64,000 nt of DNA, taken from contig JAJVII010000043.1 in the NCBI GenBank assembly GCA_022072085.1, positions 446 to 64,445 of the forward strand. Reading direction: 5' to 3'. Origin of the DNA: Phycisphaerae bacterium. Lineage in GTDB: Bacteria; Planctomycetota; Phycisphaerae; JAJVII01. How positions within the stretch are numbered: position 1 is the first letter of the stretch; each line of letters opens with the position of its first letter. The notes under the pieces were generated by a model. That model worked only from the letters and a program-made list of their open reading frames with translations, was not told the DNA's origin and searched no databases. Shown here piece after piece: positions 10,025 through 46,099 of the stretch. The translations under genes and the position numbers were made by a program.

Positions 10025-11491
10025 ATGGATACCGCGCGCCAACGAAAGTTGGGGCGTGCAGGACTGCTGGTCGCGGTCGGCGGGTTGTGTGTCGCCTGGT
10101 CGGTGGGGCTGGGCGCTTCGCCAACAACGGCGCCGGACGCGGCCAGGAAGCCGGACACCAAGACAGCCACTTGCACCAATCAGACCTGTCACGCCACCCT
10201 GATCTCCCGGAAGGTCACGCACGGGCCGACGGCGCAGAACAAGTGCGACGCCTGCCATGTCTATGACGAACCGCGAGAGCACACGTTCAAACTCTCAGCC
10301 CCGGCCGACAAGCTTTGTGATAATTGTCACACCCTCAAGCAACGTACCGTCGTGCACACCCCGGTGAAGATGGCTCAGTGCACCGGCTGCCACGACCCGC
10401 ACGGCTCGGACAATCGCACGCTGCTCAAGGCCGACCCCACGCGCGGGCTCTGCGAAAGCTGCCACAAGAAGGATGCGTTCATGAACCGCAAGTTCCTGCA
10501 CGGACCGGTGGCAGCCGGCGCGTGCATCCTCTGCCACGAGCCGCATTCCTCGTGGGAGCCCAAGCTGCTGATCAAGCCCAAGGACCAGCTCTGCGTGACC
10601 TGTCACGCCGACGTCGTCAAGAAGGCCGAGGCCGCGCGCTTCGTCCACGAGCCGGTCAAGAAGGACTGCGGCCAGTGCCACGACCCCCACAGCGGCGACG
10701 CGAAGTATCAGCTCAAGGAGGCGCCGCCCAAGCTCTGCCTGGGTTGCCACGCGGATGTCCGCAAGCAACTGACCGACGCCAAGGTGATTCACGGACAGGC
10801 CCCGCCGCAGAAGAACGAGGACGGCATGCCCAAGGTCGACGCCGCCGCCCACCGGGCCCAGGAGGAGGCCTTTGGCTGCCTGGGCTGCCACAGCGCCCAC
10901 GTTTCGACGCTGCCCAAACTCCAGAAAGCCGCCCAGCCGGACCTCTGCCTCTCCTGCCACAACCAGACGCTGATCGCCGCCGACGGCAGCAAGCTGACCA
11001 ACATGGCGGCCCTGCTCAAGGACAACCCCGAGCACCACGGACCCATCCGCGAAGGAAGCTGCACCGCCTGTCACCAGCCGCACGGCGCGGGGACCTTCCG
11101 ACTGCTCTCGCACGAATATCCGCAGCAGTTCTACGCCCCGTTCAAGCTGGAGAGCTACGCCCTCTGCTTCGACTGCCACATCCCCCAACTCGTGCTCGCG
11201 GAGAAGGGAACCGGGCTGACGCGGTTCCGCAACGGCGACATCAACCTGCACTGGCTGCACGTGAACCGCGAGAAGGGCCGCACCTGCCGGGCCTGCCACG
11301 AGGTCCACGCCTCCAAGCGCCCCTTCCACATCCGCGACGCAGTGCCCTTCGGCGACAGCGGCTGGATGCTGGAGATTCGCTTCGAGCAGACCACGACCGG
11401 CGGCAGTTGCGCGCCGGGCTGCCACCAGAAGCGGACGTATGACCGCGGCCAGGAGAACCTGGGTCCCCCCAAGCCGGGAGGTCTGAAATGA
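10025..11491 (+). CDS. Periplasmic multiheme c-type cytochrome (13 CXXCH plus CX3CH/CX4CH variants), doubled-CXXCH (HGP…C..CH) repeat family
   Basis: Signal peptide, then repeated …HGP(V/T)…C..CH units (CDACH, CDNCH, CTGCH, CESCH, CILCH, CVTCH, CGQCH, CLGCH x2, CLSCH, CTACH, CFDCH, CRACH, plus CAPGCH). It is a paralogue of the gene at 17361. ORFs 10295..11425(-) and 10324..11442(+) are frame artefacts. Confidence 0.85.
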   Translation: MDTARQRKLGRAGLLVAVGGLCVAWSVGLGASPTTAPDAARKPDTKTATCTNQTCHATLISRKVTHGPTAQNKCDACHVYDEPREHTFKLSAPADKLCDNCHTLKQRTVVHTPVKMAQCTGCHDPHGSDNRTLLKADPTRGLCESCHKKDAFMNRKFLHGPVAAGACILCHEPHSSWEPKLLIKPKDQLCVTCHADVVKKAEAARFVHEPVKKDCGQCHDPHSGDAKYQLKEAPPKLCLGCHADVRKQLTDAKVIHGQAPPQKNEDGMPKVDAAAHRAQEEAFGCLGCHSAHVSTLPKLQKAAQPDLCLSCHNQTLIAADGSKLTNMAALLKDNPEHHGPIREGSCTACHQPHGAGTFRLLSHEYPQQFYAPFKLESYALCFDCHIPQLVLAEKGTGLTRFRNGDINLHWLHVNREKGRTCRACHEVHASKRPFHIRDAVPFGDSGWMLEIRFEQTTTGGSCAPGCHQKRTYDRGQENLGPPKPGGLK

Positions 11492-12531
11492 GCGCCCACA
11501 GGGTCACCATCCGCCGGCCGCCCGTTGCCGCCTGGGCGACGCTGGCCGCCCTGCTCTGGCTGGCGCTGCCCGCGACGCCGGCCGGCGCGGTCACGCACCT
11601 CAAGCGCGGCGACGCCGCCGATCCCGTCGCCTTGTCCGACCTGGACGGCAAGCAGGTCAGCACCGCCGACCTCAAGGGCCGCACGCTGATCCTGGTCTTC
11701 GGCGAACTGTATCACCCCCGCACGCGCGACCTGTGCACGCAGATCGCAACGATCCTCAAGGACGGGAGGCTGGCCGACCAGAAGATCGCGTCCATCCTCA
11801 TCGTCGCCCAGGACGCCAAGCCCGACGAGCTGAAGGCCGAGATGGGCGACATCCACTGGCCGGCGATCATCCTGCACGACGCCGGCCGAAAGGCCTTTGG
11901 CGATTACCGCGTCGCGGTGCTGCCCAGCCTGGTCGTCGTCGACCCCGAGGGCAAGGTGGTGCACGCGATGGCCGGGCCGGTCGACCGGTTGGCCGACGTG
12001 CTGACCGACGCCCTGCTGCTGTCGGCGGGCAAGCTGAGCGCGGAGCGGTTCGAGCAGACGCTGCACCCCCAGCCGACGACGGCCCCCAGCGAGGAGTCCG
12101 AGCGATCGGAGCGGTTCACGCAACTGGCCCGCCAACTCGCCCGACGCGGTATGGACGACCTGGCGGCCGAGAAGTATGCCGAGGCCCTGAGCCTCGACCC
12201 CGGCCACGAGTCGGCGCACCTGGGCCTGGGCCTGCTGCTGCTGCGGCAGCGTCGGCTGGCGCAGGCCGAGGAACGCTTCCGCCTCGTGCTGTTGAGCGAC
12301 CCGCAGTCGCAGGAGGCGGTGCTGGGGCTGGCCTACGTGCAGACGCTGCGCGGGGGCGCGGAGCTGGCGGCGGCGGAGAAGTCCGTCCGCGACCTGCTGG
12401 CCAAGAGCCCGTCGCAGCCGCGGGCGCATTACCTGCTGGGGCTGATATGCGAGCAGCGCCACCAGACCGACAAGGCGGCTGCCAGTTTCAAGCGGGCAGC
12501 CGAGCTGCTGCTGGAGCGGAGCGAAGAGTGA
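11488..12531 (+). CDS. Secreted thioredoxin-fold (TlpA/AhpC-like) domain protein with C-terminal TPR repeats; lacks a CXXC active site
   Basis: Signal peptide, a thioredoxin-like core (GRTLILVFGELYHP…VLPSLVVVDPEGKVV) with a single Cys instead of CXXC, then TPR-like helices (AEKYAEALSLDPGHESAHLGLGLLL…). Translationally coupled to the upstream cytochrome with a 4-nt overlap. Confidence 0.6.
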   Translation: MSAHRVTIRRPPVAAWATLAALLWLALPATPAGAVTHLKRGDAADPVALSDLDGKQVSTADLKGRTLILVFGELYHPRTRDLCTQIATILKDGRLADQKIASILIVAQDAKPDELKAEMGDIHWPAIILHDAGRKAFGDYRVAVLPSLVVVDPEGKVVHAMAGPVDRLADVLTDALLLSAGKLSAERFEQTLHPQPTTAPSEESERSERFTQLARQLARRGMDDLAAEKYAEALSLDPGHESAHLGLGLLLLRQRRLAQAEERFRLVLLSDPQSQEAVLGLAYVQTLRGGAELAAAEKSVRDLLAKSPSQPRAHYLLGLICEQRHQTDKAAASFKRAAELLLERSEE

Positions 12532-12980
12532 TGAGCGAAACCACGCACGACCCTGCGCCCACGCACGACCGCGATGGACGGCGGACCTTCTGCAAGCTGT
12601 GCATCGGCGGGCTTTCGGTGGCGTCGGCGGCGACGGTGGCCTACCCGGTGGCATCGTTCCTGGGCATGCCGATCACCGTCGGGGCCAACAAGCCCGTAGC
12701 GGTCCCGCTGAGCAGCCTGGCCCCGGGGCAGGCTCACTACGCGGAGTTCCAGGGCCAGCAGATCGTCATCCTGTCGGACGAGGAAGGCCAGCGGGTGTTC
12801 AGCGCGTCCTGTCCGCACCTGGGTTGCAACGTGATGTGGAGCCCGGCTGACGCCCTGTTCCACTGTCCGTGCCACGGGGCGGTGTTCAACTCGCACGGGC
12901 AGGTGGTCAGCGGGCCGGTCAGCGCGTCGCTGAAGAAGGTCCCCTTCGAGGTCAAGAACGGGGTCATCATCGTTTCCTGA
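12531..12980 (+). CDS. Rieske [2Fe-2S] protein of a cytochrome bc-type complex
   Basis: Box I CPHLGC and box II CPCHGA are 19 residues apart, with an N-terminal TM/TAT-like segment. TGATG overlap with the previous gene. The ORF-track entry 11733..12980 is a spurious N-terminal extension in the same frame. Confidence 0.85.
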   Translation: MSETTHDPAPTHDRDGRRTFCKLCIGGLSVASAATVAYPVASFLGMPITVGANKPVAVPLSSLAPGQAHYAEFQGQQIVILSDEEGQRVFSASCPHLGCNVMWSPADALFHCPCHGAVFNSHGQVVSGPVSASLKKVPFEVKNGVIIVS

Positions 12981-12989: not shown

Positions 12990-13649
12990 ATGCGTCTGCT
13001 GGGACGGATATTCGACTGGTTCGACGAGCGGTATGAGCTGACGCCGCTGATCGAGAAGAACGTCACCCACAAGCAGGTGCCGCGGACGCTGGGCTGGAGC
13101 GCCTGCTTCGGCGGGCTGGCCTTCCTCACCTTCCTGGTCCAGGTCTTCACCGGGATGCTCCTGCTGATGTACTACAAGCCGCACCCGTCGGCCGCCTGGG
13201 ACAGCGTGACCTTCATCAAGAGCAACGTGCCGATGGGCTGGCTGGTGCAGCGGATCCACACCGTGGGCGCCAACACGATGATCGTGCTGGTGTTCATGCA
13301 CTTCGCCCGGGTGGCCTACTACAAGATCTTCCGCAAGCCGCGCGAACTGCACTGGATCAGCGGCGTGGTGCTGATGCTCATTACGACGATCATGGCCTTT
13401 ACCGGCTACCTGCTGCCCTGGACGCAACTGAGCTACTGGGGCGCCAAGGTCGGCACCGAAATCCCCGGCGCCGTCCCGTGGATCGGCGAAGGCATCCGCA
13501 ACTGGGTCCGGCGCGGGCCGGCCATCAGCGGCGAAACCCTCGGCTTCTTCTTCTCGCTGCACATCTGGATCCTGCCGGCGGTCGCGGTGGCCTTCATGCT
13601 CATGCACTTCATGATGATCCGGAGGACGGGCATCTCGCGGCCGCTGTGA
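12990..13649 (+). CDS. Cytochrome b, N-terminal half (cytochrome b6-like, 4 TM, bis-His heme ligands)
   Basis: 219 aa with four TM helices, conserved His in helices B and D (…RIHTVGANTMIVLVFMHF…, …FFFSLHIWILPAVAVAFMLMHF…) and a PetB-like length. Confidence 0.85.
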   Translation: MRLLGRIFDWFDERYELTPLIEKNVTHKQVPRTLGWSACFGGLAFLTFLVQVFTGMLLLMYYKPHPSAAWDSVTFIKSNVPMGWLVQRIHTVGANTMIVLVFMHFARVAYYKIFRKPRELHWISGVVLMLITTIMAFTGYLLPWTQLSYWGAKVGTEIPGAVPWIGEGIRNWVRRGPAISGETLGFFFSLHIWILPAVAVAFMLMHFMMIRRTGISRPL

Positions 13650-13848: not shown

Positions 13849-14499
13849 ATGGAGCAGGCCATGGGCGCCGATTACAAGAAGCAATACCGGCCCGACCAGT
13901 TGGAGCCCTTCTGGCCCAACGAGATCATCAAGATGGTCGTCGTCGTGCTCTGCACGCTGGCGGTCATCATGTTCTTTGCCGTCCTGCCGGTGCTGCTGGA
14001 CATGATCGGCGTGCACGGGGCGATGCACGGCGAGGAGCCGGCCAACCCGCAGGGCGCCACGCCCGCCGGCATCAAACCCGAGTGGTACTTCCTGGCCGTC
14101 TACCAGTATCTCCGCCTGATGCCCACCGAACTGTTCGGGATCAGCGGCAAGACGCTGGGCGTGCTCAGCCAGGGGGTGGGCATCGCGGCGGTCGTGCTGC
14201 TGCCGTTCTGGTATCGCCGACGGGCTAGCCGGCGCCCGGGCTGGGTCTATCGGCTGATTGTCACCGCCGGCCTGGTGGGGTTCCTGGTACTGACGATCTG
14301 GGGCGGCTGGCCCGAGACGCAGGGCCCCGACGGCGGCGAGGAACTGATTCCCTTCAAGGACTACCTCCACCAGAAGCCGACCATGTTCATCCTGTTCGGC
14401 GTGGCCCTGGTCGTCTTCTACTTCCTGATCTGGCGCGAGCGGCGGATGATCCGCCAGGTGCTCGACGCCCCCGATCCCGGGGAAGGAGCCGCGCCGTGA
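13849..14499 (+). CDS. Cytochrome b C-terminal half / subunit IV-like (PetD-like, PEWY motif)
   Basis: Three TM helices and a PEWYFL motif (…AGIKPEWYFLAVYQYLR…). An alternative start at 13861 has a GGAG 6 nt upstream. Confidence 0.75.
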   Translation: MEQAMGADYKKQYRPDQLEPFWPNEIIKMVVVVLCTLAVIMFFAVLPVLLDMIGVHGAMHGEEPANPQGATPAGIKPEWYFLAVYQYLRLMPTELFGISGKTLGVLSQGVGIAAVVLLPFWYRRRASRRPGWVYRLIVTAGLVGFLVLTIWGGWPETQGPDGGEELIPFKDYLHQKPTMFILFGVALVVFYFLIWRERRMIRQVLDAPDPGEGAAP

Positions 14500-15431
14500 A
14501 GACTTCGATGATCCGAATGGCTGCGGTCCTGCTGGCCACCGCGCTGGCCGCCCGGACGCCCGCCCTGCGCGCCGCCGACGACGATCCGTTCGCGAACAAC
14601 GCCTGCGTGAACTGCCACCGCGACCTGCCCGGGCGCAGCAGCGAGATCGTCACCCTCGAGTGGAAACAGAGCGTTCACCACGCCGCCGGGGTCGGCTGCG
14701 ACGGCTGCCACGGCGGCGACCCCTCGGTCCGCCGCGACCAGTTCGCCATCGAGGACGACTACAAGCGGGCGGCCCACCTTCAGCGCAATCCTGACTTCCT
14801 GCTGATGCAGGACCGCACCGACCCCTTCGTCGGTCCGGTCCGAGGACGCAAGGTTTCGTACTTCTGCGGCAAGTGCCACGCCGACATCAAGGAGAAGCAT
14901 CTGGGCAGCCCGCACGGCGACTTCGGCGACCCGACCTGTCTCTACTGCCACGGGCAGGGCTCGCACAAGATCACCCACCCGACAGCCGAGGAGATCATCG
15001 ACACGCGGCCCAAGTCCGAGAACGGACGGTGCAGCCCCTGCCACCGGGCCGCAACCATGCAGGCGGTCACTACTATCAAGAAGACGCTGATCGACGCCGA
15101 GGACAGGATCCAGACCTCCGGCAATCTCTACGCGCGACTGGAGAGCTGGGGCTACCAGAACCTGGAGTTGGAGAAGCTGCACCATCACGCCCGGGAGGTC
15201 CGCTCGCAACTGCGGCAGATCTTCCACAGTTTCAACATGAGGGACATTAACAATTTCGCCTCGGAGATCGGCGACGTGGCCGATCGCACGCAGGCGACCT
15301 ATGACCTGGTCAGCAACCTGCGCCGCACCCAGCGTCGCCAGACGGTCGTCGGAGCGTCCGCCGTCGGCATGCTGCTGCTGTTTGCCGGCCTGCTGGTTTA
15401 CTACAAGCGATCGTTCCTGGATGAGCATTAG
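14496..15431 (+). CDS. Pentaheme c-type cytochrome with C-terminal membrane anchor (bc-complex-associated)
   Basis: Signal peptide, then CVNCH, CDGCH, CGKCH, CLYCH and CSPCH, with a C-terminal TM helix (VVGASAVGMLLLFAGLLVYY). ATGA overlap with the preceding gene. Confidence 0.8.
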   Translation: MKTSMIRMAAVLLATALAARTPALRAADDDPFANNACVNCHRDLPGRSSEIVTLEWKQSVHHAAGVGCDGCHGGDPSVRRDQFAIEDDYKRAAHLQRNPDFLLMQDRTDPFVGPVRGRKVSYFCGKCHADIKEKHLGSPHGDFGDPTCLYCHGQGSHKITHPTAEEIIDTRPKSENGRCSPCHRAATMQAVTTIKKTLIDAEDRIQTSGNLYARLESWGYQNLELEKLHHHAREVRSQLRQIFHSFNMRDINNFASEIGDVADRTQATYDLVSNLRRTQRRQTVVGASAVGMLLLFAGLLVYYKRSFLDEH

Positions 15432-15718: not shown

Positions 15719-15734
15719 TTCCCACTTATGGGAA
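15719..15734. promoter_or_regulatory. Perfect 16-bp palindrome TTCCCA-CTTA-TGGGAA; candidate enhancer-binding-protein site (UAS)
   Basis: Exact reverse-complement half-sites with a 4-nt spacer, 50 bp upstream of the -24 element at 15785. Confidence 0.5.
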
Positions 15735-15784: not shown

Positions 15785-15799
15785 GGCACGCCGTTTGCT
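15785..15799 (+). promoter_or_regulatory. Sigma-54 -24/-12 promoter GGCACG-CCGT-TTGCT
   Basis: Matches the consensus (T)GGCACG-N4-TTGCW with correct GG/GC spacing. Lies ~40 bp upstream of the NapC-like cytochrome start. Confidence 0.7.
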
Positions 15800-15837
15800 T
15801 ACCTGATGGATGATCGACGGGTGTGAAGGAGGTTTCG

Positions 15838-23238: not shown

Positions 23239-23239
23239 G

Positions 23240-32962: not shown

Positions 32963-32981
32963 CGACGGAAGGAAGCGACCC

Positions 32982-34166: not shown

Positions 34167-34170
34167 ACCC

Positions 34171-35208: not shown

Positions 35209-35212
35209 CGTC

Positions 35213-36921: not shown

Positions 36922-37085
36922 GGTCAATGACGAATGTCGAATTCCGAATGACGAAGGAATGGCGAAGCACCAATGACGAATGGAAGGCGCGCGTCGCTCT
37001 CGGCCCGTGGGCATTCGTGATTCGGGCTTCGTCATTCACTCGACATTCGACATTCATCACTCGACATTGCCCGTAGGAGTCTTCC
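36922..37085. repeat. MITE-like CGAATG word-repeat element (third copy), ccmB-ccmC spacer
   Basis: AATGACGAATGTCGAATTCCGAATGACGAAGGAATGG… is followed by its inverted counterpart …ATTCGTGATTCGGGCTTCGTCATTCACTCGACATTCGACATTCATCACTCGACATTG. Confidence 0.55.
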
Positions 37086-37763
37086 ATGCGGATGAGAGTC
37101 ACACTCTACTGGCTGGCCACGGCGGCGGCGTTCGCCGGCGGGGTGGCCTTGCTGATCCTCTACACGCCCAGGGAACGGACGATGGGCGTGATCCAGAAGG
37201 TCTTCTACGTCCATCTGCCGTCGGCAATCTGCATGCTGCTGTGCGGGCTGCTGGTGTTTGTCGCAAGCATCGGCTACCTCGGCTCGCGGCGGATGTGGTG
37301 GGACGACCTGGCGGCGGCCGCGGCGCGGGTGGCGATCCTGCTGGGGGCGATCGTCCTGATGACCGGCATGCTGTGGGGCCACATCGCCTGGTGGGGCCGG
37401 ATGCGGTGGTGGTACTTCACCCCCAAGCTCACCTTCAGCCTGCTGCTGTTCCTGCTCTATCTGGTCTACGTGATGATTCGGCCGGCCGTCGAGTCGCCGC
37501 AACGCCGGGCGGTCGTGGCGGCCGTCTACGGCGTCATCGCCTTCCTGGATGTACCGCTGGTCTGGCTGTCGGCCAGGCTGATCCCCGACCCGCTGCACCC
37601 GGTCAACGAGGGCATGGCCGCCCCGATGAAGATGACCCTGCTCTACTGGTTCGTGCCGGTGGGGCTGATGGTGGCCGGGCTGATCGTCGCCCGGTTCCGG
37701 CTCAACCGCGCCGTCCGCGAGCGGGCCGACGCCCTGGCCGGGTCGGCCGGAGGTGACGCATGA
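37086..37763 (+). CDS. ccmC: Heme exporter protein CcmC-like (divergent tryptophan-rich loop)
   Basis: 225 aa with 6 TM helices and a W-rich periplasmic loop (GMLWGHIAWWGRMRWWYFTPKLT) in the position of the CcmC WWD motif. Family call is by architecture and context. Confidence 0.65.
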   Translation: MRMRVTLYWLATAAAFAGGVALLILYTPRERTMGVIQKVFYVHLPSAICMLLCGLLVFVASIGYLGSRRMWWDDLAAAAARVAILLGAIVLMTGMLWGHIAWWGRMRWWYFTPKLTFSLLLFLLYLVYVMIRPAVESPQRRAVVAAVYGVIAFLDVPLVWLSARLIPDPLHPVNEGMAAPMKMTLLYWFVPVGLMVAGLIVARFRLNRAVRERADALAGSAGGDA

Positions 37764-39146: not shown

Positions 39147-41144
39147 TTGGGCATGACAAGAATCATAAGCGTGCTTGTGAAGGATCGCACCGGCGACAGG
39201 CTCCGTCGCTTGCAGCGGGGACTCTGCTGCGCGGCGCTGGCAGCGCTGGCCATGATGGGCCTGCCCGCAGGCGCCCGCGCCGACGACACCGAAGGCTGCC
39301 TGATGTGCCACCGCTACGCGGGGCTGACGGCGGTCGACCCCAAGACCGACCACATTCGGCTCTATGGCGTCGACCCGGACTACTATCGCCACGAGCTGGG
39401 CCCGCACGTCCGGCTGAAGTGCACCGACTGCCACGACCGCGAAGCGGTGAGCACCGTGCCGCACAAACCGGTCCAGCCGGTGGACTGCACGCGGCAGTGC
39501 CACCTGAGAAGTCCGCAGCGGACCGAGCAGCTCTTCAGCCACAGCCGCATCGCCAGCATGCTCAAGGCGTCGGTTCACGACCCCGGCATGACGCTGGCCC
39601 AGAGCAACCGGCTGCTGGGCAGCCCGCTGCGCGAGGGCCAGAGCACCTGCCTGCTCTGCCACGACGAGCCGCGGTTCCTGCCGCCGGGGCACTCGTGGGC
39701 CGACAGTGAGGCCCCGATCGAGCGCTGCAACGTCTGCCACGACGAGTCGATGGGCGTGGACACGCGATACTTCTACCGCCACGTCGAGGCCCGCAGCGCG
39801 TCGGCCCGCAACAACCAGGACACCGTCCGCGTCTGCGCCCTCTGCCACGCCAACGACGCGGTGCGCAAGCAGTACGAGCTGCCCGACTCGATCGCCAGCT
39901 ACCTCAACAGCTTTCACGGCAAGGCCACGCTGCTGGGCAGCCAGGAGACCGCCGACTGCCTCGACTGCCATGTCGGGCCCATGCAGAACGTCCACATGGT
40001 GATGCGGCACGCCGACGCCAGGGCGCCGACGCATCCCGGCCGGCTCGAGGACACCTGCCGCACGCCCAGATGCCACCCGGCCGCAGGTGCAAGAATCAGC
40101 TCGGCCGCCGTCCACCTGGACCTCGCGACCGGACGAAGCGTCGAGTGGGTCATCGCACTGCTGTTCATCTTCCTGATCCTGTTCACCTTCGGCCCGTCGG
40201 TGATGCTGACGGCGCTCAAGATGCTCCACGTCGTCGTCGGCCGCCACGACCCGGGCGACCACGACCGTGCCCACCGCGCCGAGCGGATCGTCGTCCAGCC
40301 GCGCGGGCGCAAGCTGCTCGAGCGGTTCAACCCACACCAGCGGGCCCAGCACTGGGTGCTGGCGATCACCTTCGCGACGCTCGTGCTGACGGGCTTCCCG
40401 ATGAAGTTCGCCGACCGGGCGTGGGCCGCCTGGCTGGTCAACCTGATCGGCGGGCTCACCGTCGCCCGCGTCGTCCACCGCGTCGCCGGCGTGACGCTGA
40501 TCGTCGCGATGCTCTACCACATCGGCTACATCATCCGCACGCTGGTGCGCAGCAAGCGGCGCGAGGGCAAGAGCTGGTTCCGCGCCGTCTACGAACTGCC
40601 GATGATGATCACGTTCGCCGACCTCAAGCAGATGGGCCAGATGATGGCCTACCTGCTGTTCCTGCGCCGGACGCGGCCGCAGTTCGACCGCTTCAACCTC
40701 GAAGAGAAGTTCGAATACATCGGCGTGTTCTGGGGCACGTTCCTGCTGGGGTTCACCGGGGCGCTGATGTGGGCCAACGCATGGACCAGCCAGCACTTCC
40801 CCGGGCGGCTGCTCACCATCGCCACGCTCGTCCACACGATGGAGGCGCTGCTGGCGCTGCTGCACGTGGGCGTCGTCCACATGATCAGCGTCATTTTCGC
40901 GCCCGGCGTGTTCCCGATCAGCCCGGCCATGTTCACCGGCAGGACGCCCACCGAGGAAATCGCCGAGGCCCACGGCGCGATGCTCGCCCGGGCCGAGGCG
41001 GCCATGGGCGTCGGCGAGCATTACGATTCCCCGCCGTCAGGTGGGGATCGGGGGTCAGGGGCCGGGGGCCAGGCGCCTCCGCCCGATCCCCAGCCCCCGA
41101 CCCCCGACCCGGCCAAGGGCGGAAAGGAGGACAGCCATGGTTAA
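39147..41144 (+). CDS. CbcL-like fusion: periplasmic multiheme cytochrome c domain (6 CXXCH + CX3CH/CX4CH) fused to a membrane diheme cytochrome b (HydC/FdnI family) domain; putative quinol oxidoreductase feeding periplasmic cytochromes
   Basis: Signal peptide, then CLMCH, CTDCH, CTRQCH, CLLCH, CNVCH, CALCH, CLDCH and CRTPRCH. Five TM helices follow, with HydC/FdnI-like His pairs (…NPHQRAQHWVLAITFATLVLTGFPMKF…, …EALLALLHVGVVHMISV…). Low-complexity Pro-rich tail. Confidence 0.8.
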   Translation: MGMTRIISVLVKDRTGDRLRRLQRGLCCAALAALAMMGLPAGARADDTEGCLMCHRYAGLTAVDPKTDHIRLYGVDPDYYRHELGPHVRLKCTDCHDREAVSTVPHKPVQPVDCTRQCHLRSPQRTEQLFSHSRIASMLKASVHDPGMTLAQSNRLLGSPLREGQSTCLLCHDEPRFLPPGHSWADSEAPIERCNVCHDESMGVDTRYFYRHVEARSASARNNQDTVRVCALCHANDAVRKQYELPDSIASYLNSFHGKATLLGSQETADCLDCHVGPMQNVHMVMRHADARAPTHPGRLEDTCRTPRCHPAAGARISSAAVHLDLATGRSVEWVIALLFIFLILFTFGPSVMLTALKMLHVVVGRHDPGDHDRAHRAERIVVQPRGRKLLERFNPHQRAQHWVLAITFATLVLTGFPMKFADRAWAAWLVNLIGGLTVARVVHRVAGVTLIVAMLYHIGYIIRTLVRSKRREGKSWFRAVYELPMMITFADLKQMGQMMAYLLFLRRTRPQFDRFNLEEKFEYIGVFWGTFLLGFTGALMWANAWTSQHFPGRLLTIATLVHTMEALLALLHVGVVHMISVIFAPGVFPISPAMFTGRTPTEEIAEAHGAMLARAEAAMGVGEHYDSPPSGGDRGSGAGGQAPPPDPQPPTPDPAKGGKEDSHG

Positions 41145-42279
41145 GCGCGTCCTCCGACAGATCGAGGTGAAGCTGGCCAAGCTGAGCTGGGCCGCCATCC
41201 GCACGACGACGGTTCGGCTGTGGGCGGCGGCGATCCTGGTCGTCGTGGTCTGGGCCGGCGCCGTCGCGGTGCGCTACCTGGTCCGCCAGGTCTTCCAGCC
41301 CGCGCCGGTTCCGCAGAAGTTCCTCGCCTGGCAGGGACACATAGAAGCCGACGACCTGCGACAGCCTGACGTGCCGGGCCTGAACGCCCCCAGCCAGCGG
41401 GCCCCGCTGGGCCACTATCACACCGTCGAGTCGTGGTATCAGCCCGAGCCGCGCAACGCCTGCACGCTGTCCGGCTGCCACGGTCCGCTGCCGCACGAGA
41501 AGATCGCGACGGTGCGGGCCTTCGCCAACTTCCACACGACGTTCCTCAACTGCCTCACCTGCCACGGAGAATATGACGCCGGTCCGATCCCCGCCTGCTG
41601 GGTAAACACCCAGAGCGGCGAGGCCCAGGACCCGCCGCCGCTGCTCCAGATCATCAGCTACTTCCAGGAGCAGCAGGCCGAGCTTCGCAAGCGGGCCGAG
41701 TCGGCCGACGCCGCCGGCCAGCCTCAGCCTGACGCCGGAGCGGCGCTCTTCCCGCCGCTGTTCGCCGACACGCCACGGCAGGCCAACGACAAGGTGCTGC
41801 CGTTGCTGCGCGAGGTGATCGCGCTGACCGGTCCGCGCGGCGTGCTGAACTACCTGCTGCTCCAGATTCAGACCAGCCAGCCCGGCTCGCCGGTGTGGAA
41901 GCACGCGATGGCCCAACTCGCCAGCGAAGCCCCCAGCCATGCCCGCGGGCAATACGGCGCCAAGATCGCCCCGGGCGGCGGCGACGACTACCTCGACGCC
42001 AACGACGCCTTGGCCAAGCTGGCCCGGCAGTATCTCAAGGCCTCCCAGGGCGGCGACCGCTCACGGCTCTACGGGCAGATTCACAAGTCCGTGATGTCCC
42101 AGCCGCACGATTGCGTCACCTGTCACGACACGCAGGCCCATCGGCTGGATTTCGCCAAGCTCGGCTATTCGCCGCAGCGTGAGAACGACCTGCGCAACCT
42201 GGAGCAGGCACGCGTCGGCGACATGGTCCGCCACGGCGGCGTCTGGCGGATGCCGGCCATGATGATGGAGGGCCCGTGA
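41137..42279 (+). CDS. Membrane-anchored c-type cytochrome (2 CXXCH + 1 CX4CH), CbcL-associated
   Basis: AAGGAGG lies 6 nt upstream of ATG 41137. TM anchor (LWAAAILVVVVWAGAVAV), then CTLSGCH, CLTCH and CVTCH. Overlaps the preceding gene by 8 nt. ORF-track 41041 is an extension. Confidence 0.6.
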   Translation: MVKRVLRQIEVKLAKLSWAAIRTTTVRLWAAAILVVVVWAGAVAVRYLVRQVFQPAPVPQKFLAWQGHIEADDLRQPDVPGLNAPSQRAPLGHYHTVESWYQPEPRNACTLSGCHGPLPHEKIATVRAFANFHTTFLNCLTCHGEYDAGPIPACWVNTQSGEAQDPPPLLQIISYFQEQQAELRKRAESADAAGQPQPDAGAALFPPLFADTPRQANDKVLPLLREVIALTGPRGVLNYLLLQIQTSQPGSPVWKHAMAQLASEAPSHARGQYGAKIAPGGGDDYLDANDALAKLARQYLKASQGGDRSRLYGQIHKSVMSQPHDCVTCHDTQAHRLDFAKLGYSPQRENDLRNLEQARVGDMVRHGGVWRMPAMMMEGP

Positions 42280-43289
42280 TGCGCGCCCGCCTCCTCTGCC
42301 TGGTCCTGGGGGCGACGGTCCTGCTGACGGCCCCCGCCGACGCCGTCGCGCCCATGCCCCCGGACAAGCGGATCGTCGCGAAGGTCTCCAGCCGACTGGC
42401 CGGTCCCGACGATGCCCCGCTGGTCATGCCCACCGACGTCGCCTCCGACAGCCGCGGCCGCGTCTACGTCGCCGACGGCGTGAACAACCGCGTGCTGATC
42501 TTCGACGCCGCAGGCAAACCCGCCGGCCTGCTGACCACCGCCCGCGACACGCCGCTCAAGTGCCCGACCGGCCTGTTCGTGGACGCGACCGACCGGCTCT
42601 GGATCGCCGACACCGGCAACCGGCGGGTTGTCGTCGTCGCCCCGACCGGCGAACTGGCCGACGTGATCCCCGTCGCGGGCGCCGACGCCGCCCACCCGAC
42701 CGACGCCACCGACGTCGCCGTCAGCGCCGACGGGACGCGCCTGTTCGTCATCGACAACGACAACCACCGCATCCTGATCCGCGACAACGCGACCGGCAAG
42801 TGGACCGCCGCCGGCAAGTCCGGCCAGGCGCTGGGCCAGTTCCGCTGGCCATTTACCGCCTGCATCGACGGCGACGGCGAGCTGCTGGTCTGTGAGGCCA
42901 TCGGCGCCCGCGTGCAGCGGGTCGTCCCCGGACCCGAGCCCCGGTGGGCCGGCGAAATCGGCCACTTCGGCGTTCGGCTGGGCCAGCTCTATCGCCCCAA
43001 GGGCGTCGCGTCGGTCGGCCGCGGCGACGCGACCCGCGTCTACGTCTCCGACTCGACCACCGGCACGGTGCAGGCGTTCGACCTCCAGGGCCGCTCGCAG
43101 GGCGCGCTGACCGACGACCAGGGCCGCCTGCTTCGATTCGAGCACCCGATGGGCCTGTGGATCGACCGCCAGGGGCGGCTGCTCATCGTCGAATTCGGCG
43201 CCAACCGCGTCGCGGTCGTCGACCTGCCCGACAGCCGGCCCGCGCCCGACGCGCCGACCACGCAACCCGACGCGGAGGGCCGCCCGTGA
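42276..43289 (+). CDS. NHL-repeat beta-propeller protein (periplasmic)
   Basis: Signal peptide, then repeated …RVYVADGVNNRVLIFD…, …LWIADTGNRRVVVV…, …LFVIDNDNHRILIRD…, …VYVSDSTTGTVQAFD… blades. Confidence 0.7.
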   Translation: MMRARLLCLVLGATVLLTAPADAVAPMPPDKRIVAKVSSRLAGPDDAPLVMPTDVASDSRGRVYVADGVNNRVLIFDAAGKPAGLLTTARDTPLKCPTGLFVDATDRLWIADTGNRRVVVVAPTGELADVIPVAGADAAHPTDATDVAVSADGTRLFVIDNDNHRILIRDNATGKWTAAGKSGQALGQFRWPFTACIDGDGELLVCEAIGARVQRVVPGPEPRWAGEIGHFGVRLGQLYRPKGVASVGRGDATRVYVSDSTTGTVQAFDLQGRSQGALTDDQGRLLRFEHPMGLWIDRQGRLLIVEFGANRVAVVDLPDSRPAPDAPTTQPDAEGRP

Positions 43290-46099
43290 TCGGCAGCCGA
43301 CCAGACCGGCCCGCCGTCGTTGGCCTGCTGGCGCTGGCGGCCGCTGCGCTCTGCCTGCCGGCCGGCGCCCGCGGCCAGGACCGCAACCCGGTCTCGCTGA
43401 CGGCCAACGGCGGCCAGCAGTGCGCGACCTGCCACCTGCGATGGACCGACAGTTTCACGACCAACTATCAGGCCGGCCAGTTGCCGCTGCTGATCGATCG
43501 GCCGGACAACAACGTCGTCGCCGAGGAAGACTCCTGCCTGGGCTGCCATGACGGCGGCGTCGCCGACAGCCGCGACCGCGTCTGGCGCAAGCACGGCCAC
43601 CGCACCGGCATCGCCGTACCCAAGGACATGGCCGTCCCCGAGCAACTGCCACTGGACGGCGGCAAGGTCGCCTGCCGCACCTGCCACTCGGCCCACGGCG
43701 GCGGCGCCGGCGCGGGCGGCATCTCCGACATCGTCTTCCTGCGCATGGACAACAGCCGGGACCAGCTCTGCAAGAGCTGCCACACCGACGCCGCCGGCGG
43801 CAAGGTCGCCCACTCGGCCCACCCGATGGGCCCGATGCCCGCGCCGATCCCCGCGATGCTCGCCGACGCCGGCGGACGCGCCGGCAAGGACGGCCGCACC
43901 CTTTCCTGCCAGACCTGCCACGCCCCCCACGGCGGCGGCGACGACAACCTGCTCATCATCGACGCCAGCCGAAGCACCCTGTGCGTCGCCTGCCACACGC
44001 AGATGGCAGTCGAGCGCTGGCGGCCGGGCATCAGCGGCGATCACCCCCAGAACCCGCCGCTCCAGAACCGCGCCCAACGCGACGCGATCAAGGCCATGGG
44101 CGGACGCGTCGGACCCGACGACACCCTCGTCTGCCTGAGCTGCCACCGCATGCACAACGGCGCCGCCGGCAGCAAGATGCTCGCCGACACGCTGGCCGAC
44201 GGACGCTTCTGCCTCGACTGCCACCCCGACCGCAAGACGATACTGGCCTCGATGCACGACCTGCGCAAGAGCGCCCCCGAGTCCCGCAACGACGCTGGCC
44301 GAACGCCCGACCAGAGCGGGCCCTGCGGCGCGTGCCACAGCTTCCACACCTACTCCCGCAAGCCGGTTCCCGCACCGGTCGATCCGACCGGGCTGTGCAC
44401 CACCTGCCACCGACCGGGCGGCGCGGCCGCGAAGTTCAACCCGACCTTCGGCCATCCGACGGACCTGGGCGGGGCCAACCTGCCGGCGCAGGCCAGGCTG
44501 CCGCTCTATCCCGACGCCGCCCACGCCGGGGCCAGGTCCATCGCCTGCCTGAGCTGCCACAACCCGCACGACCCGGGCAACGCGAACTTCCTCCGCGACA
44601 AGCCCGACGAACTCTGCGGCCGATGCCACCCTGGGCCGGCCGAGTCGCTCGCGGGCGCCCACGACCTGACCGCCATGCCCAAGGCCGCCAACGGCCGCGG
44701 CATGACGGTTGAGCAGAGCGGGCGCTGCGGCTTCTGCCACGCCATCCACAACAGCGAAGGCCCGCTGCTGTGGGCCGCAACGCCCGGCCAGCCGGCTTCG
44801 CCCGACGCCGCATGCACCGGCTGCCACAGCGGCGAAGGTGTCGCCCGGGCCAAGCCCGCCAGCGCCCTGTCGCACCCGACCGGCCCGGGGACCGCGGGGT
44901 TCGCGCAGGTGCTGCCGATCAGCGTGCCGCTGTTCGACGCCGCCGGCCATCGCGCCAAGGACGGCGCCGTCGCCTGCGGAACCTGCCACGACGTCCACGG
45001 CGACAGCCGCGCCCGCGCGTCGCTGCTCCGCCTGGACAAGGGCCTGCCGACTTCCGCGCTCTGCGTCCAGTGCCACGCCGAGCAAGGCTTCATGGCCCGA
45101 GGCCAGCACGACGCCCGCGGCGGCGCCGACGCGTGGAAGGCAATCGTCAAGACCAACCCCAAGGCTGGTGAGGACCTCTGCGCCGCCTGCCACGTCGCCC
45201 ACAGCGACGACAAGGCCCGCGGCCTGTGGACCGTCGCCGGCAAGGGCGGCGGCGCCCCGGCTGACGCCGCCTGTCTGAGCTGCCATCCCAAGCAGGCCTG
45301 GGCCCAGCCGGCCGGCGAGCTGGCTGCCGGGACGATGATTCATCCGCAGATCGTCCAGGCGACCGCGGCGCTCAAGGCCGTCGCCCTGCCGATGGGGCCC
45401 GATCCGGGCGACGGCAAGCTGGACATCGAGTGCGCGACCTGCCACAACCCGCACGCGACGCGCGGGACGGCCGACATGCTCCGCACCGCCGGCAGCCTCG
45501 AGGCAGCGACGCTCTGCACCCGCTGCCACGCCGATGCCCGCGCGGTGCAGTCCGGCCCGCACGGGGCGGCGTCGCTGGCTGCGGCGAACAAGGTCAAGGC
45601 GGCCCAGCCCGCCGCCGGCCAGGCGGCCGCGGTCTGCGGGCCCTGCCACGACGTCCACGCAACCGACCACAGCAGCCGCTCGAAGCTCTGGGCCCTGGGA
45701 GAGCCGACCAAGGCCGACGGCACGCCGGACGGCTCGCCCGACGCCCGCTGCCTCCAGTGCCACGGGCCGGGCGGCTCGGCCCGCCAGCCGGCGATGGTCA
45801 AGCACCCCAAGGTTTACCTGCCGGTGGGCGGCGCCCAGGGCGGGATCACCTGCGCGACCTGCCACATCCCGCACGGAAGGACCGACCTGCCCGTGGCCGC
45901 GCTGGGCGACGACGCCGAAGCCCGCACGCGGCGCGAATCGACCCGGCCGATGGTTCGCCCCGACGCCGTGCAGGACAGCTGCGCCATCTGCCACGGGCCC
46001 GACGCCCTGCGGCGGTTCCTCTACTTCCACCAGCCCGAGAAGCGGCTGCGGATGCACTTCTGGGCATCGCCGCCGCCCAAAGGTCCGTCGCAGAAATAG
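43286..46099 (+). CDS. Giant multiheme c-type cytochrome (~24 CXXCH), secreted
   Basis: GTG start (GTGA overlap, GGAGGG 7 nt upstream). Signal peptide (…LCLPAGARGQD), then 24 CXXCH motifs spread over 937 aa. ORF-track 42944 is an extension. The 1005-aa ORF 43040..46057(-) is antisense. Confidence 0.8.
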   Translation: MIGSRPDRPAVVGLLALAAAALCLPAGARGQDRNPVSLTANGGQQCATCHLRWTDSFTTNYQAGQLPLLIDRPDNNVVAEEDSCLGCHDGGVADSRDRVWRKHGHRTGIAVPKDMAVPEQLPLDGGKVACRTCHSAHGGGAGAGGISDIVFLRMDNSRDQLCKSCHTDAAGGKVAHSAHPMGPMPAPIPAMLADAGGRAGKDGRTLSCQTCHAPHGGGDDNLLIIDASRSTLCVACHTQMAVERWRPGISGDHPQNPPLQNRAQRDAIKAMGGRVGPDDTLVCLSCHRMHNGAAGSKMLADTLADGRFCLDCHPDRKTILASMHDLRKSAPESRNDAGRTPDQSGPCGACHSFHTYSRKPVPAPVDPTGLCTTCHRPGGAAAKFNPTFGHPTDLGGANLPAQARLPLYPDAAHAGARSIACLSCHNPHDPGNANFLRDKPDELCGRCHPGPAESLAGAHDLTAMPKAANGRGMTVEQSGRCGFCHAIHNSEGPLLWAATPGQPASPDAACTGCHSGEGVARAKPASALSHPTGPGTAGFAQVLPISVPLFDAAGHRAKDGAVACGTCHDVHGDSRARASLLRLDKGLPTSALCVQCHAEQGFMARGQHDARGGADAWKAIVKTNPKAGEDLCAACHVAHSDDKARGLWTVAGKGGGAPADAACLSCHPKQAWAQPAGELAAGTMIHPQIVQATAALKAVALPMGPDPGDGKLDIECATCHNPHATRGTADMLRTAGSLEAATLCTRCHADARAVQSGPHGAASLAAANKVKAAQPAAGQAAAVCGPCHDVHATDHSSRSKLWALGEPTKADGTPDGSPDARCLQCHGPGGSARQPAMVKHPKVYLPVGGAQGGITCATCHIPHGRTDLPVAALGDDAEARTRRESTRPMVRPDAVQDSCAICHGPDALRRFLYFHQPEKRLRMHFWASPPPKGPSQK

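Follow-up and report, generated by a model that had tools for sequence, protein, structure and literature searches.

Described routes of extracellular electron transfer

The closest described system is the omcE cluster of Geobacter sulfurreducens and Desulfuromonas soudanensis, with solved OmcE filaments (PDB 7TFS, 9YUQ). Its published minimal form comprises two multiheme cytochromes, two beta-propeller lipoproteins, an OmcE-type tetraheme cytochrome, and a large beta-barrel. A 2025 survey of omcE-type clusters reported five phyla, Planctomycetota not among them. The undecaheme electron transfer (Uet) cluster of Candidatus Tenderia electrophaga and Gallionella, with a proposed role in electron uptake, encodes a tetraheme (UetA), a barrel of ~28 strands (UetC), NHL proteins (UetH/I), and an undecaheme cytochrome with doubled CXXCH motifs (UetJ); it adjoins cytochrome maturation genes and a TPR protein. 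MtrCAB of Shewanella and the Geobacter porin-cytochrome conduits (OmaB-OmbB-OmcB, ExtABCD) follow a common logic of periplasm-facing decaheme, large barrel, and surface multiheme lipoprotein.

At the inner membrane, Geobacter possesses several alternative quinol oxidases per organism (CbcL, ImcH). CbcL (GSU0274) joins a multiheme c domain to a HydC/FdnI-type dihaem b domain and carries 9 hemes; CymA is built on a NapC/NirT N-terminal module. A Rieske protein, a split cytochrome b6 with a heme-ci cysteine, and subunit IV characterize b6f-type complexes. Anammox bacteria and other Planctomycetota have multiheme Rieske/cytochrome b complexes, and in the anammox R/b complexes a multiheme c subunit stands in place of cytochrome f. 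In Desulfovibrio ferrophilus (DFE_0448-0451 and DFE_0461-0465; 'DFE' in FeGenie), NHL beta-propeller genes lie interspersed among those for multiheme cytochromes, and no porin is apparent. DFE variants and CbcL have been reported in Phycisphaerae by earlier surveys.

A heme-rich locus in a Phycisphaerae bacterium

Judged from sequences and structural models, the locus described here probably provides a Phycisphaerae bacterium with a complete route for extracellular electron transfer (EET), starting at the menaquinol pool and ending at the cell surface. It lies in a window of 64,000 nucleotides, the whole stretch analysed, to which all coordinates refer. Since the contig belongs to an NCBI "Phycisphaerae bacterium" MAG in which the products of the locus are annotated as hypothetical proteins, it does not represent a well-known electroactive genus with this locus already annotated, the origin that the initial annotation had named as speaking against its interpretation.

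Over ~36 kb (10025-46099), 12 multiheme cytochrome ORFs, all on the + strand and with a GC3 of 0.86-0.93, carry 13, 5, 11, 13, 10, 11, 4, 4, 8, 6, 2, and 24 CXXCH motifs in gene order. The total of 111 and the per-gene numbers agree with those given initially in a slightly different order. In six frames, CXXCH occurs 111 times within the locus and twice across the other 28 kb of the window, so that the enrichment is not a matter of chance. Nine CX3CH/CX4CH variants, previously proposed as functional heme sites, were confirmed in the translations of g1 (CAPGCH, CTNQTCH), g7 (CQSGCH, CTEGGCH), g6 (CTRAGCH), g12 (CTLRCH), g24 (CTRQCH, CRTPRCH), and g25 (CTLSGCH). Among g7/g1 homologues, the CX4CH motif is conserved in 119/121 and the CX3CH motif in 121/121; the g6 CX4CH is present in 23/23 orthologues, the g12 CX3CH in 22/26, and the position of CRTPRCH in g24 is a heme motif in 35/36. 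A functional role is thus supported by conservation for seven of the nine variants, those other than CTRQCH and CTLSGCH, and the locus would bind ~118 hemes in total. The genes form four separately conserved modules (A to D) plus cytochrome c maturation (ccm) genes.

Predicted quinol oxidases and periplasmic wires

Module A (g1 to g5 with the Rieske gene) and module B (g6 to g8) encode:

10025-11491, +: g1, 15-heme periplasmic cytochrome (13 CXXCH, CX4CH, CX3CH); paralogue of g7 (43% identity)
11488-12531, +: g2, thioredoxin-fold (no CXXC) and TPR protein (Pfam AhpC-TSA/Redoxin, TPR; weak TPR_CcmH_CycH match)
12531-12980, +: Rieske 2Fe-2S subunit (CPHLGC...CPCHG)
12990-13649, +: g3, b6-type cytochrome b, split form, heme-ci cysteine conserved (Pfam Cytochrome_B, 181 bits)
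13849-14499, +: g4, subunit IV, PetD-like (Pfam Cytochrom_B_C)
14496-15431, +: g5, pentaheme cytochrome c with C-terminal membrane anchor, replacing cytochrome f/c1
15823-17364, +: g6, N-terminally anchored NapC/NirT-type quinol dehydrogenase, 12 hemes (11 CXXCH, CX4CH; Pfam Cytochrom_NNT, 43 bits; transmembrane segment)
17361-18857, +: g7, 15-heme periplasmic cytochrome (13 CXXCH, CX4CH, CX3CH), g1 paralogue
18854-19915, +: g8, TPR protein with Trx-like N-terminus lacking Cys, coupled to g7

The best PDB matches of g3 are cytochromes b6 of b6f complexes (E=1e-54, full length, Cys aligned), and the Rieske protein and subunit IV are likewise shared with these complexes, with a multiheme c subunit as in anammox bacteria. 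In contrast to known Rieske/cytochrome b6 complexes, the operon begins with genes for a 15-heme cytochrome and a Trx/TPR protein, translationally coupled by an ATGA overlap, and is part of an EET-type supercluster. The NapC/NirT module of g6 is that of CymA, but extended to 12 hemes. Together with the CbcL-like g24 (see below), the Rieske/b6-type complex with its pentaheme c and g6 would constitute three alternative inner-membrane quinol oxidases, a pattern shared with Geobacter. The periplasm would be spanned by heme wires, namely g1 and g7, each with its coupled Trx-fold/TPR partner, and the octaheme g23. MtrA is resembled by g9 and, weakly, by g7 (6r2q_A, E=2e-12).

The outer-membrane module and its OmcE-like cytochromes

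Module C comprises:

20045-21223, +: g9, decaheme cytochrome of lipoprotein type (motifs, lipoprotein signal, MtrA-like), proposed to sit in the barrel and face the periplasm
21220-23238, +: g10, outer-membrane beta-barrel, 672 aa, Cys-free, about 28-30 strands (AF2 pLDDT 93)
23240-24310, +: g11, NHL beta-propeller lipoprotein
24288-25985, +: g12, 12-heme cytochrome (11 CXXCH, CX3CH; alternative start 24231); N-terminal ~200 aa form an OmcE-like tetraheme domain
26691-27437, +: g13, OmcE-like tetraheme cytochrome, candidate filament subunit
27488-28210, +: g14, OmcE-like tetraheme cytochrome, candidate filament subunit
28475-29623, +: g15, NHL/6-bladed beta-propeller lipoprotein (lipobox LAGC)

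Based on its AF2 model, g10, unannotated in the source, is a very large outer-membrane beta-barrel. MtrB is the top Foldseek match of this model, while g10 gives no match to the Pfam profile for MtrB, from which it differs in having ~30 instead of 26 strands and a small inserted beta domain at about aa 400-465. No curated family cutoff of the MtrCAB/porin-cytochrome type was reached (TIGR03508: score 146, cutoff 192), and, unlike those conduits, whose logic it shares, the locus encodes NHL propeller partners.

The N-terminus of g12 matches nearly full-length OmcE (9yuq_N, E=2e-25; 7tfs_A, E=3e-23), and the family profile of g13 and g14, which lie in tandem and are 49% identical, matches only two sequences in the PDB, both OmcE (E=5e-16 and 1e-14). 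By this similarity, g13, g14, and the g12 N-terminus are homologous to OmcE, the cytochrome of the nanowires. The gene content of g9-g15 appears identical to that of the minimal omcE cluster, with g9 and g12 as the multiheme cytochromes, g11 and g15 as the propeller lipoproteins, g13/g14 as the tetraheme, and g10, matched by type, as the barrel. Differences concern the phylum, the tandem duplication of the tetraheme, the OmcE-like domain on one large cytochrome (g12), the linkage to quinol oxidases and ccm genes, and the absence from g13/g14 of the N-terminal NTKHDL segment, in place of which a near-invariant His lies 5 residues before heme 1. For both solved OmcE proteins, the sequence homology of the tetrahemes and the g12 N-terminus is direct. 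The barrel, the OmcE homologies, and the match of g9-g15 to the minimal omcE cluster had escaped the first reading of the DNA.

These features bear on a periplasmic respiratory or detoxifying network, in which quinol would feed, via the NapC-like protein or the bc complex, large cytochromes reducing soluble or periplasm-accessible acceptors (nitrite, hydroxylamine, sulfur species, chelated metals, or quinones), with the barrel and NHL proteins acting in uptake or assembly rather than in conduction across the outer membrane. Such a network is quite unlikely: g10 contains no plug domain, in a natural fusion (P0196) a cytochrome resembling g9 is joined to a barrel resembling g10, and three proteins bear signals of lipoproteins, a trait of known outer-membrane conduits. 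Furthermore, homology to OmcE suggests a polymer outside the cell, and family searches revealed neither a catalytic heme environment nor a reductase domain (NrfA, HAO, molybdopterin).

Cytochrome c maturation genes and module D

A System I maturation block (30174-37763, +; Pfam) in the middle of the locus is followed by further cytochrome genes, including module D (g24, g26, and g27):

30174-30593, +: ccmE
30590-32962, +: ccmF
32982-34166, +: g18, 39% identical to its paralogue g19
34171-35208, +: g19, paralogue of g18
35213-35971, +: ccmA
36154-36921, +: ccmB
37086-37763, +: ccmC
37934-39136, +: g23, octaheme periplasmic cytochrome
39147-41144, +: g24, CbcL-like, multiheme c domain (6 CXXCH, CX4CH, CX3CH) fused to a HydC/FdnI-type cytochrome b membrane domain (Pfam Ni_hydr_CYTB, 40.5 bits)
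41137-42279, +: g25, membrane-anchored, 2 CXXCH and CX4CH
42276-43289, +: g26, NHL beta-propeller protein (Pfam)
43286-46099, +: g27, 24-heme cytochrome with paired CXXCH motifs at regular spacing

Family searches gave no match for g18, g19, or g25. The assignment of g24 is further supported by partial NCBIfam FdnI matches and transmembrane segments; it shares the architecture of CbcL, but has 6-8 heme motifs. The Rieske/cytochrome b complex, the NapC-like protein, the cytochrome b-fused multiheme protein, and the ccm genes recognized initially are all present. The NHL protein g26, the 24-heme g27, and the Ccm heme-attachment genes would represent further parts of the pathway.

Predicted sigma-54 control and proposed direction of electron flow

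The 14-mer GGYACGCSGTTTGC occurs five times in the window, each time upstream of a gene. The regulatory features are:

3288-3301, -: sigma-54 promoter (-24/-12) GGCACGCGGTTTGC, exact match to the 14-mer (PWM score 31.5), facing ORF 2789-3262 and kor/POR genes
3531-3544, +: sigma-54 promoter before the activator gene (14-mer/PWM), possible autoregulation
3591-5132, +: NtrC-type sigma-54 enhancer-binding protein with receiver, AAA+ sigma-54 interaction domain, and HTH_8 (Pfam Sigma54_activat, 224 bits; Response_reg; HTH_8); candidate start codons at 3591 or 3741
5219-6235, +: periplasmic phosphonate-binding-like protein, sensor gene (Pfam)
6365-7390, +: HAMP/HisKA protein, sensor gene (Pfam)
7707-9056, +: histidine kinase, sensor gene (Pfam)
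9978-9991, +: sigma-54 promoter, 34 nt 5' of the g1 ATG (14-mer/PWM)
15785-15798, +: sigma-54 promoter upstream of g6 (14-mer/PWM)
26624-26637, +: sigma-54 promoter upstream of g13 (14-mer/PWM)
30118-30131, +: weak sigma-54-like site upstream of ccmE, 2 mismatches (motif search)
15720-15733: palindrome TCCCA-N4-TGGGA, candidate activator binding site; also 26471-26484 and, with one mismatch, 3443-3456

The exact 14-mer is common to three cytochrome operons and the regulator gene, and the NtrC-type activator adjoins them. The common sigma-54 control proposed initially therefore holds for these three operons, not for the ccm genes with their weak site or for g23-g27, upstream of which the motif and PWM scan found none. 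All three palindromes lie upstream of sigma-54 promoters, their raw count not being above chance. It is supposed that the adjacent two-component system activates these promoters and thereby the expression of at least three operons.

The best reading in silico is an EET pathway, in either direction, which strengthens the initial proposal that a lineage without known electroactivity respires an extracellular acceptor or takes up electrons. The decaheme g9 would be inserted into g10 like MtrA into MtrB, g12 would reside at the cell surface, and g13/g14 may polymerise into an OmcE-type filament anchored or capped by g12. Net flow would be outward, with Fe(III)/Mn(IV) minerals, humic matter, or partner cells as acceptors; if so, the pathway would offer an electron sink to a sugar-fermenting lineage.

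With the same hardware, electrons could also enter from Fe(II), reduced minerals, cathodes, or partner cells, pass the conduit to the Rieske/b6 complex, and reach an oxidase or, by reverse flow, the quinone pool, as proposed for Uet of Tenderia, PCC3/MtoAB of Gallionellaceae, and D. ferrophilus. Mtr-type conduits are reversible, Fe(II) oxidisers typically have Rieske/cytochrome b complexes, and electron uptake has been linked to the clusters of multiheme cytochromes and NHL proteins of D. ferrophilus, which the locus resembles by published descriptions, apart from its barrel gene. The Uet-like composition (tetraheme, 28-strand barrel, two NHL proteins, doubled-CXXCH-type undecaheme), a likeness that again rests on published descriptions, fits this direction too, although the three triheme c7 proteins, cupredoxin, PPIase, and CcsAB (System II) of Uet are absent here. 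Neighbouring cytochrome maturation genes and a TPR protein are likewise common to the two. Inward flow is nevertheless unlikely, as the window contains no cyc2, cupredoxin, carbon-fixation gene, or terminal oxidase, the relatives are heterotrophic polysaccharide degraders, oxidative EET markers were rare in Phycisphaerae in a boreal-lake survey (3/139 OTUs), and the catabolic kor/POR operon appears to carry the same sigma-54 motif.

Distribution and integrity of the locus

Modules of the locus are present in >500 species genomes and distributed over several phyla. This distribution is consistent with horizontal transfer, cytochrome maturation genes have been reported to be co-transferred with EET modules, and the contig comes from a MAG; that the locus is a chimera of metagenome assembly, or an island of recent transfer without functional integration, is nonetheless very improbable. 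GC content (0.62-0.74) and GC3 are uniform over the locus and its flanks, and one promoter motif unites three operons with the regulator gene. The segment from the Rieske gene to g5 is identical in an independent Logan assembly, and each of the junctions A-B, B-C, C-D, D-A, and ccm-A is found independently elsewhere, complete chromosomes being among the genomes concerned.

The density, initially called exceptional, is typical of this kind of locus: the best 21 kb contain 71 CXXCH, whereas related ~21-kb loci reach up to 80 (median 45), those of Fontivita pretiosa and ZRK34, both cultured, being equally dense. Nor can the locus be shown to be self-contained, as initially suggested, since in relatives modules A and B are found on their own too, amid housekeeping genes. 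With its modules common across Planctomycetota, it illustrates well a little-described kind of system and is no isolated case; the novelty lies in a complete omcE-type cluster within this phylum.

Gene content and heme motifs

The region 10025-46099 of the window harbors 28 genes on the plus strand, numbered g1 to g27 with the exception of a Rieske protein gene that is absent from the gene list of the initial annotation. Since the G+C content of the window is 62-75%, genes were chosen by third-position GC and frame analysis. They are arranged in four modules (A to D), with genes for cytochrome maturation located between C and D.

Genes of the cytochrome region (all plus strand), with predicted products and heme numbers
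Module A: g1, 15-heme cytochrome; g2 (11488-12531), thioredoxin fold plus TPR; Rieske protein (12531-12980); g3 (12990-13649), cytochrome b; g4, subunit IV; g5, pentaheme cytochrome
Module B: g6, NapC/NirT N-terminal module with membrane anchor, 12 hemes; g7, 15 hemes; g8 (18854-19915), TPR protein
Module C: g9, decaheme cytochrome with lipoprotein-type signal; g10, barrel; g11, NHL lipoprotein; g12, 12 hemes; g13 and g14, tetraheme cytochromes; g15, NHL protein
Maturation genes, in this order: ccmE, ccmF, g18 (32982-34166), g19 (34171-35208), ccmA, ccmB, ccmC
Module D: g23 (37934-39136), octaheme cytochrome; g24, CbcL architecture; g25, membrane-anchored, 2-3 hemes; g26, NHL protein; g27, 24 hemes

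Twelve of these genes encode CXXCH motifs (13, 5, 11, 13, 10, 11, 4, 4, 8, 6, 2, and 24, in sum 111), which reproduces the earlier count, and a six-frame search yields 111 motifs inside the region vs. two in the remaining 28 kb of the window. The density, initially regarded as exceptional, is characteristic of such loci, as related loci hold comparable numbers: the best ~21 kb of the window contain 71 CXXCH motifs, those of related loci up to 80 (median 45), and those of two cultured strains 67 (strain ZRK34) and 59 (Fontivita pretiosa). The unusual trait of the locus is the concatenation of all modules plus the ccm genes.

All nine CX3CH and CX4CH variants listed in the initial annotation were located in the translations. 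In an alignment of g7 and g1 with 119 homologues (121 sequences), the N-terminal CX4CH motif is kept in 119 sequences, the C-terminal CX3CH motif in all 121, and all 13 CXXCH motifs are conserved as well; the family is therefore most likely to bind 15 hemes. The variants of g6, g12, and g24 were checked in orthologues from related loci, where the CX4CH of g6 is retained in 23/23, the CX3CH of g12 in 22/26, and the position of CRTPRCH in g24 is a heme motif in 35/36. CTRQCH of g24 and CTLSGCH of g25 lie outside this tally. Altogether, the locus is likely to encode approximately 118 heme sites, with a maximum of 120. None of the cytochromes, NHL proteins, g18, g19, or g25 receives a family-level assignment from NCBIfam. 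An anammox-type function was rejected, with no HZS, HDH, or HAO domains found in the locus by Pfam and NCBIfam searches.

Predicted quinol oxidases and periplasmic cytochromes

Module A encodes a cytochrome b6-type Rieske/cytochrome b complex, as judged from the presence of a Rieske protein (PF00355, 49.6 bits), a split cytochrome b6 (g3; PF00033, 181 bits), a subunit IV (PF00032, 50 bits), and the heme-ci cysteine. The best PDB matches of g3 are cytochromes b6 of b6f complexes (E=1e-54), with the heme-ci cysteine aligned, and the protein resembles the cytochromes b6 of chloroplasts and cyanobacteria more closely than any cytochrome b of bc1 complexes. The complex has no cytochrome f; this position is taken by the pentaheme g5, which carries a C-terminal anchor.

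Two further putative quinol-oxidizing proteins are encoded in modules B and D. The g6 protein shows the order expected of a NapC/NirT quinol dehydrogenase, an N-terminal anchor (transmembrane segment 22-40) followed by a NapC/NirT heme module (PF03264, 43.2 bits at a cutoff of 24.1, aa 21-103); it aligns with the first part of the profile only and has eight further hemes beyond. As in CbcL-type proteins, g24 unites a multiheme c domain (aa 51-304, six CXXCH and two variant motifs) and a HydC/FdnI-type cytochrome b (PF01292, 40.5 bits at a cutoff of 30.1, aa 393-597, 5-6 transmembrane segments) in a single polypeptide. The neighboring g23 has a Cys-rich C-terminus with a weak YHS/TRASH-like match (E=0.002), which may be a metal-binding tail.

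Both 15-heme cytochrome genes are translationally coupled, by an ATGA overlap of stop and start codon, to a gene for a thioredoxin-fold/TPR protein without a CXXC motif (g2 and g8, respectively). Since this pairing is kept in most related loci, it suggests that g2 and g8 act as dedicated chaperones or partners rather than as redox enzymes.

Predicted outer-membrane conduit and OmcE-like cytochromes

The first ~200 residues of g12 match OmcE of Desulfuromonas soudanensis (9YUQ, E=2e-25) and of Geobacter sulfurreducens (7TFS, E=3e-23) over nearly the whole length of the latter proteins. After a gap of 0.7 kb follow g13 and g14, a tandem pair with 49% identity to each other and ~34% each to the N-terminus of g12. 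The g14 protein aligns end to end with 7tfs_A (E=3e-11), with its four heme motifs in register, and a profile of the family (53 members) retrieves only 7tfs_A (5e-16) and 9yuq_N (1e-14) from the PDB. Besides the four CXXCH histidines, H60, H72, H156, and H214 are invariant or nearly so, the same number of extra histidines as the four heme ligands reported for OmcE. The assignment of g14 rests on sequence and profile homology and not on predicted structure, as an AlphaFold2 model of the monomer, built in the absence of hemes, was of low quality (pLDDT 64) and had no fold match in Foldseek. The published minimal definition of an omcE cluster comprises a large barrel, two beta-propeller lipoproteins, two further multiheme cytochromes, and a tetraheme cytochrome. 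When matched to this gene list, g9-g15 equal it in content, with g10 as the barrel, g11 and g15 (the latter with a classic lipobox) as NHL proteins, g9 and g12 as the further cytochromes, and a tetraheme OmcE homologue with four CXXCH motifs and four further histidines.

The g14 family yields 742 matches, mostly from Phycisphaerae and other Planctomycetota and often as tandem copies. A third OmcE-like tetraheme cytochrome of the source MAG (P0284, BIFFINMI_02142) is encoded on another contig, and at least five copies (P0274, P0289, P0302, P0343, P0275) lie on one 11.6-kb contig of another Phycisphaerae MAG; because of these copies, the family appears to be prone to tandem amplification.

The g10 protein (672 aa, no Cys) gives nothing in Pfam at E<=0.01, and thus no MtrB_PioB match, and a word-indexed homologue search returned only g10 itself. 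With an exhaustive HMMER search, 1075 representatives were recovered, of which nearly all have 650-690 aa. An AlphaFold2 model built with 65 relatives (pLDDT 93, pTM 0.81) is all-beta, without a plug domain, and shows a small beta domain inserted among ~28-30 long strands. On the strength of this model, the predicted fold class, a large beta-barrel, is regarded as certain and a specific kinship with MtrB as not certain. The C-terminus (...FSIKRRF) is consistent with an outer-membrane protein. P0196, a metagenomic protein of 934 aa, is a naturally fused form in which a 5-heme lipoprotein cytochrome related to g9 (37% identity to g9, shared N-terminus LSFFFDGVPDP) is combined with a g10-like barrel; as it joins both kinds of domain in one chain, it supports a physical complex of g9 and g10. 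P0196 can also be described as a ‘fused cytochrome-porin’, of a type far larger than Cyc2.

The best scores for the MtrCAB/DmsE model TIGR03508 (146 for g7, 126 for g1, and 95 for g9) stay below the cutoff of 192. Compared by its published description, the Uet system of Tenderiales has the tetraheme, the barrel, two NHL proteins, and an undecaheme in common with the locus, but the complete set uetABCDEFGHIJ is not present, as no cupredoxin, PPIase, or small triheme c7 is encoded in 10-46 kb. Some features are variants relative to known systems: g12 contains a fused OmcE domain, the system is linked to a b6-type complex, and Trx/TPR proteins are present as partners.

Cytochrome maturation

The scores of CcmE, CcmF, CcmB, and CcmC exceed the Pfam cutoffs; CcmA matches as a generic ABC ATPase. 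CcmD, CcmG, and CcmH were not identified in the window, and the Trx-fold proteins g2 and g8 lack CXXC. Between ccmF and ccmA lie the paralogues g18 and g19 (39% identity), for which no Pfam or NCBIfam family was matched. Genes of the CcmH/CcmI type might be expected at this position; g18 contains five LPAGHPAIG-type repeats (aa 45-103), and g19 a C-terminal membrane anchor.

Regulation

Five exact copies of the 14-mer GGYACGCSGTTTGC, which represents a sigma-54 -24/-12 element, are present, at an estimated chance expectation of ~0.002 per window. Exact sites precede g1, g6, g13, and an activator gene; the fifth lies on the opposite strand and faces a small ORF and the kor/POR genes (2-oxoacid:ferredoxin oxidoreductase).

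Regulatory elements and the genes faced by the opposite-strand site
3288-3301, minus strand: exact sigma-54 14-mer
2789-3262, minus strand: small unknown ORF
788-2674 and 1-803, minus strand: kor/POR
3443-3456, 15720-15733, and 26471-26484: palindrome TCCCA-N4-TGGGA
near 9915-9926: half-site of the palindrome

The common sigma-54 control initially proposed holds for the operons starting at g1, g6, and g13; the site before ccmE has two mismatches, and a PWM scan found none before g9 or g23. Because the same exact 14-mer faces kor/POR, this catabolic enzyme may belong to the same regulon as the cytochrome operons. The palindrome is not more frequent than expected by chance, but its position, upstream of sigma-54 promoters only (three of them, plus the half-site), is suggestive and marks it as a candidate site for binding of the NtrC-type activator encoded nearby.

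Origin, distribution, and modularity

The proteins g7, g10, g13, and g14 are identical to BIFFINMI_03139, _03142, _03145, and _03146, encoded on a 72-kb contig and annotated as hypothetical in ‘MAG: Phycisphaerae bacterium’. The genus is not a known electroactive one, in line with the initial suggestion about the lineage. A chimeric assembly was rejected on the grounds of uniform composition and of junctions seen independently; the Rieske-to-g5 segment is also present in an independent Logan assembly. In the best species-representative genomes, which belong to Tepidisphaerales, g7 reaches only 54% identity, and the cytochrome b (g3) is 78% identical to that of Fontivita pretiosa.

A scan with the g7 family alignment detected this family in at least 535 species-representative genomes, most of them Phycisphaerae and other Planctomycetota; further members occur in Nitrospirota, Ignavibacteriales/Bacteroidota, Acidobacteriota, Marinimicrobia, Binatia, and one Deltaproteobacteria MAG. 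Members of the g10 family are also found in MAGs of Deltaproteobacteria (L048) and Acidobacteriota (L073), and neighboring module C genes in one of Marinimicrobia (L078).

Synteny was assessed by tblastn over 43 related loci, each 18 kb or longer. Nine of them contain module A and 13 module B; the barrel/NHL/12-heme core of module C occurs in 14, and g26-g27 in 3. Five loci possess the full six-gene module C, which is contiguous in L017, L020, L034, L044, and L076. The order of joined modules varies between genomes. Among cultured carriers, the facultative anaerobe Fontivita pretiosa has modules A and B, and strain ZRK34 has B and C (L008). In a relative with 59% identity to g7 (L082/L083), a unit of NapC-like multiheme cytochrome, 15-heme cytochrome, and Trx/TPR protein stands alone among housekeeping genes. 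This three-gene unit may be the ancestral and most widespread core of these systems. In view of its isolated occurrence, a role confined to the periplasm is a serious rival reading of modules A and B.

Proposed electron pathway and direction of flow

An electron pathway from the inner membrane to the cell surface is the best-supported reading of the locus. Quinol would be oxidized by the b6-type complex, g6, and g24, and electrons would pass via the periplasmic heme wires g1, g7, and g23 to a conduit of g9 and g10 with NHL scaffolds, and from there to g12 and OmcE-like filaments; g27 would be an additional large cytochrome. We observe the parts and their homologies, and infer from them assembly, localisation, filament formation, and direction of flow. 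The initial interpretation as a module for respiration to an extracellular acceptor is largely right and was overstated with regard to rarity and common regulation.

In published descriptions, Phycisphaerae figure as fermenters with incomplete respiratory chains, and the class is known for degrading polysaccharides and fermenting sugars. Outward flow, which would provide a fermentative heterotroph with an electron sink, is favored because relatives degrade polysaccharides, oxidative markers are rare in Phycisphaerae, and the catabolic kor genes are seemingly co-regulated. The same three points stand against inward flow through the pathway, a serious rival nonetheless and the direction proposed for Uet, PCC3, and D. 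ferrophilus.

Several surveys touch on such systems. A FeGenie-based survey lists ‘DFE variants or CbcL’ in Phycisphaerae, and a second one DFE/PCC matches in Phycisphaerae MAGs. A class-wide genome survey of Phycisphaerae (2024) sought only mtrBC, and its accessible text describes no such clusters. For Acidobacteriota and Verrucomicrobiota, a preprint of 2026 covers porin-scaffold-cytochrome clusters as well as OmcE-like cytochromes, and a nanowire survey found OmcE homologues in five phyla, Planctomycetota not among them. Our literature search returned no account of an omcE-type cluster, the 15-heme family, or the supercluster in Planctomycetota, and nothing useful on strain ZRK34 or on 15-heme cytochromes.

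A more specific version of the surface pathway is put forward tentatively, as we give it somewhat less than even chances: Phycisphaerae might build OmcE-type filaments on a ~30-strand barrel, fed from the quinol pool via the b6-type Rieske complex and periplasm-spanning 15-heme cytochromes that would use the conserved CX4CH and CX3CH sites. With its own OmcE-like domain, g12 would be the filament base or cap near the membrane. To our knowledge, a ‘stopper/anchor’ protein of this kind has yet to be found inside an omcE cluster. Anoxic sediments, soils, peat, and engineered systems all harbor Phycisphaerae in abundance. If such filaments are formed, a sixth, ecologically very abundant phylum would have nanowire-based EET, and this would account for the electron sink that anaerobic Phycisphaerae use in sediments and peat. 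If the modules export electrons, Phycisphaerae would link their carbon turnover to metals, humics, or other species as electron sinks, and their part in carbon and iron cycling would be modelled differently. The g12 fusion and the natural g9::g10 fusion offer testable material on anchoring and termination of OmcE-type filaments, and the locus on maturation of non-canonical CX3CH/CX4CH sites; experiments are feasible in Fontivita pretiosa (modules A, B) and strain ZRK34 (B, C).

Flanking genes

The genes upstream of the cytochromes code for an enhancer-binding protein of the NtrC type, two histidine kinases, and a periplasmic binding protein. Scans for Rfam families and tRNAs gave no matches in the window. 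On the other side, 47203-54366 (minus strand) is an unusual secretion-type cluster. It encodes a short SecA-like ATPase (679 aa), which has no match to the scaffold and wing domains of the C-terminus, alongside three membrane-fusion proteins of the HlyD type; among the latter, one has a PqqD and another a GAF domain.
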